Shown in pieces: positions 14,525 through 59,765 of a stretch of 64,000 bases of DNA. The notes under the pieces were generated by a model. That model had not been told where the DNA came from and searched no databases. It worked only from the letters and a program-made list of their open reading frames with translations. The stretch is taken from NCBI GenBank assembly GCA_021796115.1, contig JAJYOP010000006.1, forward strand, positions 8,359 to 72,358, in the 5' to 3' direction. Numbering within the stretch: the first letter of the stretch is position 1; every line of letters starts with the position of its first letter. Made by a program: the position numbers and the translations under genes. The stretch is from a bacterium (lineage in GTDB: Bacteria; Omnitrophota; Gorgyraeia; Duberdicusellales; 4484-171).

Positions 14525-14701
14525 AACCAAACAATGACCAAATCGCAAATCCCAAGTACCAAACAAATTCCAATATCCAATGTTTCAAATTCTAAACAAA
14601 ATGAGTTTGGAACATTGGAATTTGGAAATTGGAATTTATTTGGAATTTGGGATTTGGAGCTTGTAGTTTGTTTGTATCTTGTATCTTGGTTATTGGTTAT
14701 T
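14525..14701. repeat. ccaaat/atttgg long hairpin family, copy 1
   Basis: aaccaaacaatgaccaaatcgcaaatccc...ctaaacaaaatgagtttgg...ggaatttgggatttgg...cttggttattggtt. Related to copies at 44089, 55442, 56624 and 59509. Confidence 0.85.
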
Positions 14702-14717
14702 CCTCGAAATTGAATTT

Positions 14718-15611
14718 ATGATACGTAACTTTATTCAAGCCATCCGTCTCCCATTTATTACCGCAAGCCTCCTGCCATTTTTCTTTGGTTCGTTCATAGT
14801 CAGGAAACATTTCGCTTTCGCAGGTTTCGTCCTCGGCCTTATCGCCGCACTTTCTACGCATATAAGCGCAAATCTTATAAACGATTATGGTGATTCCCGT
14901 TCTGGCGCCGACTGGCATGATAAAAAAGCATATAAGTTTTTTGGCGGTTCAAAATTAATCCAACAAAACATATTTTCCGAAAAATTTTACCTGACAAGCG
15001 CAATTATTTTTATTTTAATTTCGGCTGCGTCGGTTGCTTTATTGTCAGTAGTATTAAAAAGTTATTTTGTCTTAGCCATTTATGCAATAATTGCTACCTT
15101 AAGCTGGCTTTACTCAATATCTCCTTTGAGATTTTCTTATCATAGAGTGGGGGAGGTGTTTCTTTTCTTGCTCTTCGGCCCGGCTCCAGTTATGGGCGGA
15201 TATTTTATCCAGACAGGAATATTTCCTGATTTCAAAAGCTTTCTCTTATCTCTGCCTTTCGGAATGTTTACGACAGCCATACTCTTTGCCAATGAAGTTC
15301 CTGATTTTGCTGACGACCAGAAAGCCGGGAAGAATACCTGGGTCAGTTTAATCGGGCCGCAAAATTGCTTCATTTTTTATTACTTTTTAATCTTTTCCGG
15401 TTTCTTTTTAATTTTATTGAATGTGCTTTTTGCTTTCTTAAGCCCGTTTGCTTTATTCACATTTTTCTTTGTGATACCTGCGCTTCAGGCAGCGCAAATA
15501 ATAAAAAAATCTTTCGAAAATAAAACAGAGTTAATAAAATCTTCCAAACTTACCATTATGGTGCAAAATCTTGTAGCTGTCTGTTTGGTGCTGGTAATAC
15601 TTTTTTCCTAG
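14718..15611 (+). CDS. UbiA-family aromatic prenyltransferase (MenA-like)
   Basis: NDYGDSRSGAD motif and multiple TM helices. The start at 14679 in the ORF track lies inside the hairpin repeat, so ATG 14718 is preferred. Confidence 0.75.
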   Translation: MIRNFIQAIRLPFITASLLPFFFGSFIVRKHFAFAGFVLGLIAALSTHISANLINDYGDSRSGADWHDKKAYKFFGGSKLIQQNIFSEKFYLTSAIIFILISAASVALLSVVLKSYFVLAIYAIIATLSWLYSISPLRFSYHRVGEVFLFLLFGPAPVMGGYFIQTGIFPDFKSFLLSLPFGMFTTAILFANEVPDFADDQKAGKNTWVSLIGPQNCFIFYYFLIFSGFFLILLNVLFAFLSPFALFTFFFVIPALQAAQIIKKSFENKTELIKSSKLTIMVQNLVAVCLVLVILFS

Positions 15612-15684
15612 CCTAGTGCCGGCAGGTCGATATTTGAAATAAGTTTATCTCAATAATTGTAATCTAAAACAAGGGGGGTGCACG

Positions 15685-16080
15685 ATGATTGATATTGTTA
15701 TTCTTATTTTGCGCTTATGTTTGGCGGTTGTGTTTATAGGCCACGGCATGCAATTTGCTTTTGGCGCTTTTGGCGGCCCGGGAATCCAGGGGGTCTCTTC
15801 GATGCTTACGAATTTGGGGTTTAAACAAGTTTTGTTCTGGGCGTATTTATCGGCATACACCCAGCTTATCGCAGGAATACTTCTTGCCCTTGGATTGTTC
15901 AGCCGGTTTGCGGCTTTTTCCATATTTATTTTTATGATTGTTGCGGTTATCAAGGTCCATCTCGCTAAAGGGTTCTTCATGCAATCAGGCGGATTTGAAT
16001 ATAATTTTGTGCTTATCTGTATATGTATTGTTTTAATGCTGTCCGGATCGGGAAAGTTCGGTATAACTCCTAAATTATAG
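15685..16080 (+). CDS. DoxX-family membrane protein
   Basis: LRLCLAVVFIGHGMQ...four-TM DoxX pattern. Confidence 0.7.
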   Translation: MIDIVILILRLCLAVVFIGHGMQFAFGAFGGPGIQGVSSMLTNLGFKQVLFWAYLSAYTQLIAGILLALGLFSRFAAFSIFIFMIVAVIKVHLAKGFFMQSGGFEYNFVLICICIVLMLSGSGKFGITPKL

Positions 16081-16332
16081 ATGGAGAAGTTAATTTATTT
16101 ACTTTTAGCTACAGGTTTTCTTTCAGGATTTTTTGCAGGATTGCTATTGGCAGCGAAGCCGCGGCTTGCCATAGAATTACAGAAAATATTTTACGCAAAA
16201 ATAAATTGGAGGATGGAGCCAATTTCTATGGAAAAAGAAATCCGCAACACTCGGATAATGGGCATTTTTTTAATCATTGTAACCGTCATTGGAACGGTTA
16301 TTGCTTTATTGCGATGGGAAAAAATTGTATAA
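16081..16332 (+). CDS. small membrane protein
   Basis: Two predicted TM helices. Start abuts the DoxX stop. Confidence 0.5.
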   Translation: MEKLIYLLLATGFLSGFFAGLLLAAKPRLAIELQKIFYAKINWRMEPISMEKEIRNTRIMGIFLIIVTVIGTVIALLRWEKIV

Positions 16333-16436
16333 ATTTTTATTTGCTTTCTGATTTTTTTTAGTTTAATATAAGATTAACTTTAAAGTTTATTCACCCCTTA
16401 AGGCAGGATGGCGGTTCGCGAAATTTTGCTTAAAAG

Positions 16437-57562: not shown

Positions 57563-58567
57563 ATGGAGGAGGGACGAGTAGTAGATTATTTACAGGAAAA
57601 TGAGGAAGAGAAGGTAATAAATCTTTCCCTTCGTCCCCAGGGTATTTCTGATTTTATCGGCCAAACAAACGTAATTTCTGCGCTTGAGATAGCTATCCAG
57701 GCGGCCAAGAAAAGAGAAGAGCCGCTTGAGCATGTACTTTTATCAGGCCCTCCCGGGCTTGGCAAAACCAGCCTTGCGTATGTAATCGCTCATGAGATGG
57801 GCGCAAAATTAACTTCTACCAGCGGTCCGGCGATTGAGCGTGCCGGAGATTTAGTCGGTATTCTGACCAACCTCGAAAAGGGCGACATACTTTTTATCGA
57901 TGAAATCCATCGGCTTTCCAAGATAGTTGAAGAATTTTTATACCCGGCAATGGAAAATTTTCAGATTGATTTTGTTATCGATAAAGGGCCATACGCAAAA
58001 AGTGTAAAGTTCAATTTAAAACCGTTTACTTTGGTTGGCGCGACGACAAGGAAAGGTTTGCTTAGTTCTCCTTTACGGGGCAGATTCGGCCTTTTTTATG
58101 ATTTTGATTTTTATACCATCGAAGATCTTGCCAGAATAATTGAACGTAGCGCAAAACTTCTTGATATAAAAATAGATACGGAAAGTTCTCATGAGATAGC
58201 CGGTAGGGCCCGTGGTTCGCCCAGGCTCTCTAACCGCCTGCTAAAGAGAGTAAGAGATTACTCGCAAGTCCGGTCAGAGGGGATTATAAATTTAGAACTT
58301 GCCAAAGAGGCACTTGAGTATTCAAGGATTGATGCCAATGGTTTTGATGATTTGGATAGAAAATACCTTAAGGCATTAATTGAGCTTCACGGCGGCGGTC
58401 CCGCCGGCATAGAAGCGATTGCGGCTTCTTTAGGGGAGGATAAAGGAACTCTTGAGGACGTTGTTGAACCCTACCTTTTAAACAAAGGTTTTATTATACG
58501 GACACCTCGCGGCCGCCAGGTTACCGAATTAACCTACCAGCAGCTAAAAAATAGCTCAAAAAAATAA
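57563..58567 (+). CDS. ruvB: Holliday junction branch migration helicase RuvB
   Basis: GPPGLGKTS Walker A, FIDEIHRL, ATTRKGLLSSPLRGRFG. Confidence 0.95.
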   Translation: MEEGRVVDYLQENEEEKVINLSLRPQGISDFIGQTNVISALEIAIQAAKKREEPLEHVLLSGPPGLGKTSLAYVIAHEMGAKLTSTSGPAIERAGDLVGILTNLEKGDILFIDEIHRLSKIVEEFLYPAMENFQIDFVIDKGPYAKSVKFNLKPFTLVGATTRKGLLSSPLRGRFGLFYDFDFYTIEDLARIIERSAKLLDIKIDTESSHEIAGRARGSPRLSNRLLKRVRDYSQVRSEGIINLELAKEALEYSRIDANGFDDLDRKYLKALIELHGGGPAGIEAIAASLGEDKGTLEDVVEPYLLNKGFIIRTPRGRQVTELTYQQLKNSSKK

Positions 58568-58761
58568 ATCCCTAAAACCCCTTGTTTATCATTGATTTTT
58601 CCGCCAAATAGGCTTTTCTTCAAAACTGTAAACATTTACAAATCCGTAGTTTTTTTATTTTTAACTGGATTTATAAACAGATTTATGCTATATTGTAGTT
58701 GAGGTTAAACATATGATTATCGATAAAAGCCTGGCCGGGGCCAAGGCAGGGAGGTGAATAA

Positions 58762-58980
58762 ATGGCGCAAAAAATTAAACACAGAGATGGATTTATTGGA
58801 TGCCGGACTTCCAGAGCAATTGAAGATAAATTAAAAGAATTTTGTTCAGAGCACAGCCGCGAAGTTAGCGAAGTGATGAATTATCTTTGCAGGTTGTTTA
58901 TCGAAGACGCGTATCAGATTCGTACGAAATTCTTCTTTGGTTCGAACCACCCGGAGAATCCGGAAAAGACTGAAGTCTAA
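58762..58980 (+). CDS. small protein, possibly ribbon-helix-helix DNA-binding
   Basis: IGCRTSRAIEDKLKEFCSEHSREVSEVMNYLCRLFIE fits a beta-strand/helix/helix pattern. gggaggtg SD. Confidence 0.3.
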   Translation: MAQKIKHRDGFIGCRTSRAIEDKLKEFCSEHSREVSEVMNYLCRLFIEDAYQIRTKFFFGSNHPENPEKTEV

Positions 58981-59261
58981 AAGGAAAAGTTACTATCTTA
59001 TGGCTTGTGCTATTTAGATTATTATTCGCGGCGGCAATTTTTCTGGAATTGTGTTTACCGCAAGCAATGTCGCTAACGATGTTACTGCCATATTTTTCTA
59101 AAAAAACCACTTCTTGATTGCGAAAAGGCCATAGGAATTTACCGCTTACAAAACTTCATTTTTTCCTAAGTTGTGGTATAATCTAACCCAATTTTCTTAT
59201 CACAAAAGCGCAAAGGATTTTTTGCAGCTTTGCGGAATTTTACGGTTTAGCGGTGTCAACC

Positions 59262-59489
59262 ATGAACAATTTAGGAAAATCTCTTATAATAATTGGCATT
59301 TTCATAACTCTGGCAGGATTGCTTCTGGTTTTATTCACACGCTTTAAAATTCCTTTCTTGGGAAGGCTTCCCGGCGATATTTTAATCAAAAAAGAAAATT
59401 TTACTTTTTATTTTCCACTGGCCACATCAATTTTGATCAGTGTTATTTTAAGCGCAATTTTATATCTTATTGCAAAGATACATAAATGA
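59262..59489 (+). CDS. DUF2905-family small membrane protein
   Basis: GRLPGDI motif between two TM helices. Confidence 0.7.
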   Translation: MNNLGKSLIIIGIFITLAGLLLVLFTRFKIPFLGRLPGDILIKKENFTFYFPLATSILISVILSAILYLIAKIHK

Positions 59490-59508
59490 CAAAACGATAG
59501 CTGGAGAA

Positions 59509-59765
59509 ATAACCAAGTTCCAAGATACAATAACCAAACAATGACCAAATTCCAAATCCCAAATTCCAAATAAATTCCAATGACCAAAATTCCGATGTCC
59601 TAAACAAAACCCGTTTTGGTCATTTGAACATTGGAATTTGTAACTTATTTGGAATTTGTCCTTCGACAGGCTCAGGACAACCCTGAGCGAGTGAAAACGA
59701 GTCGAAGGGTTGGTGCTTGGAGTTTGGAATTTGTTTGTATCTTGTATCTTGGGTATTGGTTATTT
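59509..59765. repeat. ccaaat/atttgg hairpin family, copy 5, carrying a nested 52-nt mini-hairpin (59658-59709)
   Basis: aaccaagttccaagatacaataaccaaacaatgaccaaattccaaatcccaaattccaaataaattccaatgaccaaaattccgatgtcctaaac...ggaattt[gtccttcgacaggctcaggacaaccctgagcg...gtcgaaggg]ttggtgcttgg...cttgggtattggtt. Confidence 0.9.

Follow-up and report, generated by a model that had tools for sequence, protein, structure and literature searches.

Five hairpins, c1 to c5, in a 64-kb stretch of contig JAJYOP010000006.1 (the window, meaning the whole stretch of DNA analysed) probably derive, as non-autonomous copies, from a palindromic insertion element that belongs to the intervening sequence (IVS) type. They lack an open reading frame (ORF) and resemble miniature inverted-repeat transposable elements (MITEs). 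Full-length members of the element carry a gene for a four-helix-bundle protein of ~115 amino acids (aa), the intervening sequence protein (IVP), in the loop between inverted arms built of degenerate heptamers. All five window copies stand between protein-coding genes; none lies inside a helix of a 23S or 16S rRNA gene. We read them as selfish insertions rather than as signals of host control. In the literature on the sequence itself and on Omnitrophota hairpin repeats, neither this family nor any IVS-type element located in operon spacers was found described.

The connection with the IVP gene was made in other genomes (L-numbers denote the compared loci). The arms of the window hairpins, a C/A-rich arm (CA arm) followed by its T/G-rich counterpart (TG arm), enclose an ORF of ~115 aa in L046 (Omnitrophota), L048 (Parcubacteria), and L053 (Planctomycetales). 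Its product is a PF05635/TIGR02436 four-helix bundle (S23p/IVP, Avd-like) according to Pfam and NCBIfam, and matches PDB 2rld at 1e-13. A metagenome scan with this protein alone gave 363 relatives; the best 80 of the 363 (63–89% identity) were taken, and 45 flank pairs from these, inspected by eye, nearly all showed a CA arm before the gene and a TG arm after it. Arm complementarity was scored for 86 IVP genes, ~10 of them from other subfamilies, and reached at least 30 in 59, with a shuffle maximum of 23. The ~10 genes of other subfamilies, chance finds in the loci, also lie between inverted heptamer arrays, each with a unit of its own (GTAGAGA, GCGCATA, CTAAATA, GACGAGG, GACAGCT, and others). 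No reverse transcriptase, template repeat, or variable repeat was found adjoining the IVP genes, which stand alone between hairpin arms.

One pair of elements documents how the ORF-less form may arise. L002 has two GTAGAGA elements at a distance of 1 kb, one with the ORF and one without, and their sole difference is the ORF in the former and ATAAAAAA in the latter; judged from this pair, the ORF-less form is an ORF deletion. About 2–3 of the 118 genome matches listed carry the ORF, so that ORF-less copies far outnumber full-length ones.

The window copies fold much more stably than shuffled sequences. Each was folded as RNA and compared with 200 dinucleotide shuffles: c1, −65 kcal/mol (z −7.8); c2, −29.3 kcal/mol (z −3.6; one shuffle equally good); c3, −53 kcal/mol (z −7.0); c4, −67.6 kcal/mol (z −6.0); c5, −108.5 kcal/mol (z −10.9; up to 25 consecutive pairs). 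The expectation of the original prediction that the hairpins are more stable than dinucleotide-shuffled controls was borne out for all five (z −3.6 to −10.9). Its description of a 5′ arm almost free of G and a 3′ arm almost free of C also agrees with the composition of c1 to c5, which have G-poor 5′ halves and C-poor 3′ halves. The arms, 40–90 nt long and AT-rich, are arrays of a degenerate 7-nt unit, CCAANNN / NNNTTGG (AATAACC/AAGATAC/CCAAATN and so on in the 5′ arm, the complements in the 3′ arm); their self-similarity is maximal at lag 7 (0.56 vs. 0.33 in shuffled arms), and copy lengths vary by indels of heptamer units. Compensatory covariation specific to a copy was not found: 5′ arms pair with their own 3′ arm at 10.9 and with the 3′ arms of other copies at 9.9, the own 3′ arm being the best pairing partner in only one of 28 copies. 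Decay of copies made from a palindromic master would give this result, which speaks against a selected RNA fold. Rfam, run on the window at gathering thresholds, matched three tRNAs only and none of the hairpins. An intrinsic terminator was ruled out, the stem base being AU-rich and a T run following c3 only. Matches in a sigma-70 promoter scan around c1 and c2 were no more frequent than in shuffles.

That c1 to c5 form one family was seen in two ways. A repeat search of the window joined them through long direct-repeat families and long inverted repeats, and an nhmmer profile of 28 copies from other genomes found exactly these five (E 5e-19 to 3e-7), with a sister hairpin at 4701–4828 as the sole further, weak match (E 0.08). 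The five places originally predicted are therefore right; of the boundaries, that of c1 had to be moved to 14405, ahead of a nested interruption, and c2 is best ended at 44204.

Copy c1 (14405–14701, + strand, orientation ambiguous) is of the full-length ORF-less type, with termini GAAATAACCAAG.. / ..CTTGGTTATTGGTTATT; direct and inverted repeat analysis placed its true start at 14405, where its 5′ end GAAATAACCAAGTT.. is shared with c3 and c5. A mini-element of 91 nt (14433–14523, + strand), consisting of two AGGAAGGCCCTAACC hairpin units, is nested in it at the target AATAA^CCAAAC. Copy c2 (44089–44204, + strand) is decayed to the inner core, with a truncated 3′ arm, and lies downstream of a terminator-like hairpin. 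Copy c3 (55437–55613, + strand), in the infB/trpS spacer, is again full-length and ORF-less. Copy c4 (56623–56816, + strand), in the trpS/scpA spacer, lacks the outermost arms and has a 52-nt hairpin nested in its 3′ arm (56742–56793, + strand; GTCCTTCGAC..CCTGGGC..GTCGAAGGG). Copy c5 (59506–59765, + strand), in the spacer between a DUF2905-like gene and tgt, is the longest, with full termini and the identical 52-nt hairpin (59658–59709, + strand) at the same position as in c4. From this shared nested hairpin it is evident that a composite master had been copied whole. One ORF-less loop is common to c2, c4, and c5 and another to c1 and c3; because of these shared loops and the nested insertion common to c4 and c5, it is concluded that ORF-less copies multiply in that form.

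The position of the copies relative to genes was largely, not wholly, as first described. The gap to the next start codon is 16 nt for c1, ~22 nt for c2 (uppS), 24 nt for c3, 3 nt for c4 (the scpA ATG), and 21 nt for c5, so that a distance of about 10–25 nt applies to c1, c2, c3, and c5 (16–24 nt) and not to c4. The overlap of c4 with the trpS stop codon is real, and comprises 2 nt of the TGA rather than its last base. A location upstream of co-oriented genes does not describe c1, which is flanked by the divergent genes for polyprenyl synthase (minus strand, start ~14367) and UbiA (14718) and does not precede a single co-oriented operon partner. Within 25 nt of the starts of the five downstream genes there is no GGAG, GAGG, or AGGA.

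Relatives in synteny with the window show the hairpins to be insertions. By its TrpS, the window belongs to Candidatus Omnitrophota (best match 89% identical; no identical genome was found), and six syntenic Omnitrophota contigs with TrpS 73–89% identical were compared. In L122, the junctions that hold c3, c4, and c5 in the window are hairpin-free (9 nt, overlapping, and 1 nt, respectively); in L119, the infB/trpS junction is 2 nt. Other relatives have hairpins there: L001, a GAAATAC family at all three junctions; L002, GTAGAGA hairpins at infB/trpS and trpS/scpA (the contig stops before the tgt junction); L120 and L121, a CACGAAT hairpin at trpS/scpA, with an AATCAAA hairpin at infB/trpS in L120 and a copy of the window family at infB/trpS in L121. 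Conversely, L001 has a copy of the window family at UPF0102/FTCD_C (17306–17453), where the window reads TAAaacccATG only. The tight, probably translationally coupled junctions are likely the ancestral state, to judge from these comparisons, and those of L122 and L119 mark the hairpins c3 to c5 as inserted. Each genome has its own dominant hairpin families, which fits lineage-specific bursts of mobile elements into few permissive spacers. The presence/absence polymorphism at orthologous intergenic regions that the original prediction had in view was thus found, and the repetitive extragenic palindromic (REP)/MITE-like family it proposed is supported in substance: the copies are non-coding, palindromic, present or absent at orthologous junctions, and subject to nested insertion. 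The key context missing from that proposal is the presence of an IVP gene between these arms in elements of full length.

The family extends far beyond these relatives. The 3′-terminal 20-mer GTATCTTGGNTATTGGTTAT, scanned against GTDB species-representative genomes, gave at least 116 loci. Among those listed, with phyla assigned by record title (some TPA "binchicken" bin labels may be imprecise), 29 were in Omnitrophota, 21 in Chloroflexota, 20 in Patescibacteria/candidate phyla radiation (CPR), 20 in Planctomycetota, 8 in Elusimicrobia (all in one metagenome-assembled genome, MAG), 7 in Saganbacteria/WOR-1, and 11 in others. Copies from differently labelled phyla are 80–94% identical over aligned columns, a figure inflated by the gapped alignment of low-complexity heptamer arrays. 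Typical copies among the genome matches listed are hairpins of 105–155 nt with termini AATAACCAAG.. / ..CTTGGTTATTGGTTATT, the 5′ partner arms having been located by folding and a composition check; they fill their spacers, in most cases at −5 to +40 nt from the preceding stop codon and 0–50 nt from the next start codon. Scanning all loci with markers for rRNA-internal copies returned one locus with an rRNA gene (L097), in which the family match is outside the rRNA. A viral-contig scan gave two matches only, both TG-rich arrays without a hairpin, and so offers no evidence of a phage vector.

The orientation of the copies had originally been called fixed, on the ground that the C/A-rich arm always comes first. 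This order is real but strand-symmetric: a CA-arm/TG-arm hairpin reverse-complements to a CA-arm/TG-arm hairpin, so the order of the arms cannot show orientation. Direct vs. reverse-complement alignment, strand-specific nhmmer scores, and the asymmetric 3′ 20-mer were used as markers instead. Alignment scores were 121–223 (direct) vs. 39–52 (reverse complement) among c2, c4, and c5, and 142 vs. 85 for c1 with c3; nhmmer scores were higher on the + strand for c2 to c5 and tied for c1. Window genes are nearly all on the + strand, for which reason the window alone cannot separate transcription from replication. Among ORF-carrying relatives, 38 were co-oriented with both neighbours and 3 opposed. 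Among the genome matches listed, the 20-mer was co-oriented with both neighbours in 34 and opposed in 16 (p = 0.015), or 60 vs. 32 when the downstream gene only was considered (p = 0.005), and some copies lie in opposite, divergent, or convergent gene contexts. The bias with transcription (38:3; 34:16; four of five window copies) is real but partial, not fixed. The 38:3 bias of ORF-carrying copies is larger than replication strand alone would produce, and it suggests reliance on read-through transcription by the host, whether to express the IVP or as part of the mechanism.

The following sequence of events would account for the copies. An element lands in a short intergenic spacer; its ORF-less derivatives multiply in that form, and other mini-hairpins insert into them. 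On transcription of the operon the element would fold into a long double-stranded stem, which RNase III could cut by analogy with the IVSs of 23S rRNA; the stem of c5, with its up to 25 consecutive pairs, would be long enough for an RNase III substrate. Such cutting would let the insertion be tolerated at the RNA level rather than make it serve the host. Folding may also bring the upstream stop and downstream start codons back into proximity, which could rescue downstream genes that have no Shine-Dalgarno motif and were translationally coupled before insertion (as in L122). The IVP may act in trans on cognate heptamer arrays. More tentatively, and as a possibility that we hold to be rather less likely than its opposite, the combination of a heptamer-array hairpin with an Avd-like four-helix-bundle gene could be the general form of IVSs and an unrecognised class of self-propagating elements, in which each IVP subfamily would recognise its own array and mobilise copies with and without the ORF through an RNA/cDNA or single-strand intermediate, in dependence on host transcription. 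If true, this would explain the 38:3 co-orientation, the missing target duplications, and the spread over phyla by MAG label (Omnitrophota, CPR, Chloroflexota, Planctomycetota, and others).

The copies are short, non-coding, multi-copy, and polymorphic in presence, with terminal inverted repeats, as MITEs are, and could in principle be conventional MITE- or REPIN-like repeats whose 40-nt terminal inverted repeats are recognised by a transposase (DDE, or HUH/RAYT/IS200-IS605) that mobilises them in trans, the IVP being a passenger. We consider this unlikely, in spite of well-defined and conserved termini (AATAACCAAG.. / ..CTTGGTTATT), of the many short non-coding copies with presence/absence polymorphism and nested insertions, and of other cargo between the arms (an AbiEii-like nucleotidyltransferase in L013, a PD-(D/E)XK ORF in L060); the missing target-site duplication and the strand bias would also suit single-strand (HUH) transposition. 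However, no transposase was seen between or beside such arms in ~200 loci, and the apparent 3-kb composites in L090 and L077 are two separate complete copies each. The recurrent partner is the IVP: all 80 loci selected by protein fall into one arm family, and other IVP subfamilies have arms of their own; the 38:3 co-orientation is stronger than replication-strand bias alone, and REPs are short and GC-rich, unlike these copies. Membership of REP/REPIN-RAYT was rejected on the 40–90-nt, AT-rich arms and on loci in which no RAYT gene was seen, and a MITE with a transposase-coding autonomous partner was rejected because the partner with the same ends encodes an IVP.

That the host retains the hairpins ahead of certain genes as a cis-acting RNA device (for processing, stabilisation, or control of translation) is distinctly improbable in our estimation. 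It would agree with the strong stems, the orientation bias with transcription, and the proximity of the copies to start codons (3–24 nt) of five genes without GGAG, GAGG, or AGGA within 25 nt, as well as with hairpins at the same three junctions in the window and L001 and at both junctions examined in each of L002, L120, and L121. Yet these junctions are hairpin-free and 0–9 nt in L122, and 2 nt at infB/trpS in L119, and the hairpins at shared junctions come from unrelated sequence families. Moreover, the site of c1 is a divergent promoter region and that of c2 follows a terminator, copies across genomes occur also in opposite, divergent, and convergent contexts, and near-identical sequence stands beside unrelated genes in MAGs labelled as unrelated phyla; neither compensatory covariation nor an Rfam family was found. 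The RNA-level feature that the original prediction gave as its second option, taken as host control, is thus not supported. Least credible of all is that local slippage or template switching creates palindromic heptamer microsatellites site by site, with likeness by convergence. Arms of tandem 7-nt units, copy lengths that differ by unit indels, and 7-nt indels in heptamer arrays in the literature (PMC4679880; PMC4990558) would be expected from slippage, but a non-periodic order of variants and the termini recur over >100 nt in MAGs labelled as many phyla, the nested insertion in c4 and c5 is at an identical position, and the arms are tied to one protein subfamily.

Several points weigh against derivation of c1 to c5 from an IVS-type element. 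A strict count of the family motif was satisfied on both sides in only 38 of the 86 IVP genes. The window itself has no IVP gene of the matching subfamily, its sole IVP gene (37720–38228) being apparently frameshifted and accompanied by other heptamers. No mobility enzyme was identified, and the IVP has no known catalytic activity. Neither a target-site duplication nor a clear target motif was found flanking 41 other-genome copies or the three full-length window copies, the flanks of which merely tend to A before and T after. The relatives compared include no filled/empty site pair from one species, the closest having 89% TrpS identity, and the repeated presence of different families at three junctions might equally reflect some benefit of a hairpin at these places. 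Processing of the window stems by RNase III is argued from analogy, the orientation bias is left without explanation by this derivation, and the reading of phylum labels and cross-phylum identities is limited as given above.

Among known systems, the IVS of 23S rRNA is closest. That of Coxiella has a terminal-inverted-repeat stem, tandem GACAGAT heptamers, and an S23p ORF; it is cut by RNase III within the stem, and has been termed a selfish element of unknown origin and mobility (PMC4990558). The 23S IVSs of Leptospira and Coxiella burnetii (PMC4990558) and the window family have in common the long terminal-repeat stem, heptamers in the arms, a PF05635 ORF in the loop, ORF-less forms, and a sporadic, horizontal-looking distribution. 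They differ in that IVSs sit in helix 25/45 of 23S rRNA whereas the window copies sit in spacers of protein genes; in that the window family has many copies per genome, mostly ORF-less and multiplying without the ORF; and in that a single arm family is present in MAGs labelled as six or more phyla, while RNase III excision is known for the Coxiella IVS. IVP genes have further been recorded between cas genes (PMC3936711) and in CPR rRNA insertions (PMC11270868). PF05635 is the Pfam family matching Avd-like proteins of diversity-generating retroelements (PMC10053308). The IVP genes here have PF05635 in common with Avd, and none of these retroelement components adjoins them. Avd itself acts together with a reverse transcriptase and structured RNA.

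Heptamer arrays and palindromic repeats of other kinds offer partial parallels. Intergenic TAACTGA heptamer direct repeats in Beggiatoaceae, Cyanobacteria, and Bacteroidetes are patchy across phyla and unexplained, and often lie directly upstream of start codons without a Shine-Dalgarno motif (PMC4679880). The TAACTGA and cyanobacterial STRR arrays are direct, whereas those of the window family are inverted, fold into a single long hairpin, and have a link to a protein gene. STRR are intergenic arrays of 7-nt units. Correia/NEMIS elements (Neisseria), ERIC/IRU, and RUP are near-palindromic, non-coding MITEs of 100–260 nt that are intergenic, co-transcribed with their flanking genes, and form mRNA hairpins; Correia elements have been reported as RNase III substrates. 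These MITEs are the best analogy for the behaviour of the window copies, although they have target-site duplications (TA for Correia) and no heptamer build, and no MITE of the Correia/ERIC/RUP type is known to us whose full-length partner carries a four-helix-bundle gene. REP/REPIN-RAYT systems share scattered intergenic short palindromes and a single protein gene flanked by the repeat; they differ in an HUH tyrosine transposase as partner and in GC-rich REPs of 20–40 nt, where the present family has a small four-helix bundle without a known catalytic motif.

To our knowledge, IVSs and S23p/IVP proteins have been known for decades with no mechanism or function. The family described here ties this old puzzle to an abundant and experimentally tractable element: it offers thousands of natural copies outside rRNA, with and without the gene, and matched protein-heptamer pairs across subfamilies, and makes it directly approachable whether the IVP binds its own arms and whether it mobilises them. 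The elements occupy a large share of Omnitrophota intergenic DNA, are present in CPR- and Chloroflexota-labelled MAGs, probably fragment operon transcripts, and serve as markers of horizontal exchange between uncultivated lineages of groundwater and sediment. They may also give rise to spurious ORFs, as the CA arm reads as NNQ-rich peptides in stop-to-stop ORFs of a six-frame scan.

Traces of other IVP elements and cargo genes were seen. In the window IVP gene, the PF05635 N-terminus MAFKFEKLKVWQKG starts from the ATG at 37720 and meets an early stop; the Pfam match resumes in the frame of the ORF at 37749, which extends to 159 aa, and GATAGTC heptamers lie just upstream (37675–37697). In all probability this is what is left of an ORF-carrying element, now in decay, from a different subfamily. 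In L060 (Berkelbacteria, + strand, ~5400–6050), a PF13366 PDDEXK_3 nuclease (E 6e-29) lies between ATTACGGAT arms and could be a catalytic relative of these elements; the AbiEii-like nucleotidyltransferase between ccaa-family arms in L013 is at 4195–5137. In L097, a TG-type half array (5480–5560) lies within a long ORF and reads on the opposite strand as a low-complexity peptide; a 23S rRNA gene adjoins it, and the rRNA match of 3182 nt, for a model of 2925 positions, may indicate insertions in the rRNA gene itself.

Hairpins of other heptamer families are present in the window and in its relatives. The sister hairpin at 4701–4828 is a loopless hairpin of 128 nt with AAACTCT/TAAACTC heptamers and arms 81% complementary, located between two + strand genes; its architecture is that of c1 to c5, its family different. 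Further intergenic heptamer hairpins or arrays are at 24499–24571; 62248–62304; and 60900–60953, 62889–62953, and 35295–35331, with units of the types GACGAxx, AGGGTxx, and ACGGATx. With these, the number of such families in the window is five or more. Similar to the GACGAxx type are L001 16189–16324 and the arms of an IVP gene in L153; the AGGGTxx type has the G-rich arm first. In a 21-kb operon stretch of L001 (525–20071), the closest relative, most spacers >40 nt are filled by hairpins of ~10 repeat families (CACGAAT, CCGCAAA, CGCGAAT, GAAATAC, GACGAAA, and others), while the same stretch of the window is mostly tight; the hairpin load of close relatives is thus very different.

The nested insertions belong to repeats of their own. 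The mini-element in c1, with hairpin units AGG(G/C)C(C/T)TCCT...AGGAAGG(G/C)CC, was also found at the same AATAA^CCAAAC target within a copy in L057, another Omnitrophota MAG (minus strand, ~4447 in reverse-complement coordinates), which suggests that a second nested element exists that is specific for its target and may duplicate TAA. The motif of the nested hairpin in c4 and c5, CCTGAGCG..(G)TCGAAGG, recurs inside or beside ccaa-family copies and elsewhere (L003, L029, L050, L069, L073, L131, L147, L168, L173; MAGs labelled as several phyla); this hairpin is thus a widespread mini-repeat in its own right. At least four intergenic sites in the window are occupied by a GC-rich repeat family (GCGGAAAGGGGCGTCGCCCGCGCTTTAAGCGGGC and, after it, another hairpin) that has no sequence relation to the heptamer hairpins (2062–2129, 2703–2780, 12255–12377, and 23109–23223). 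Next to c1, at 14340–14405, a promoter-like pair TTGCAT-17-TACCAT stands ~6 nt ahead of the apparent polyprenyl synthase start (minus strand), a spacing that hints at leaderless or very short-leader mRNAs in the host.

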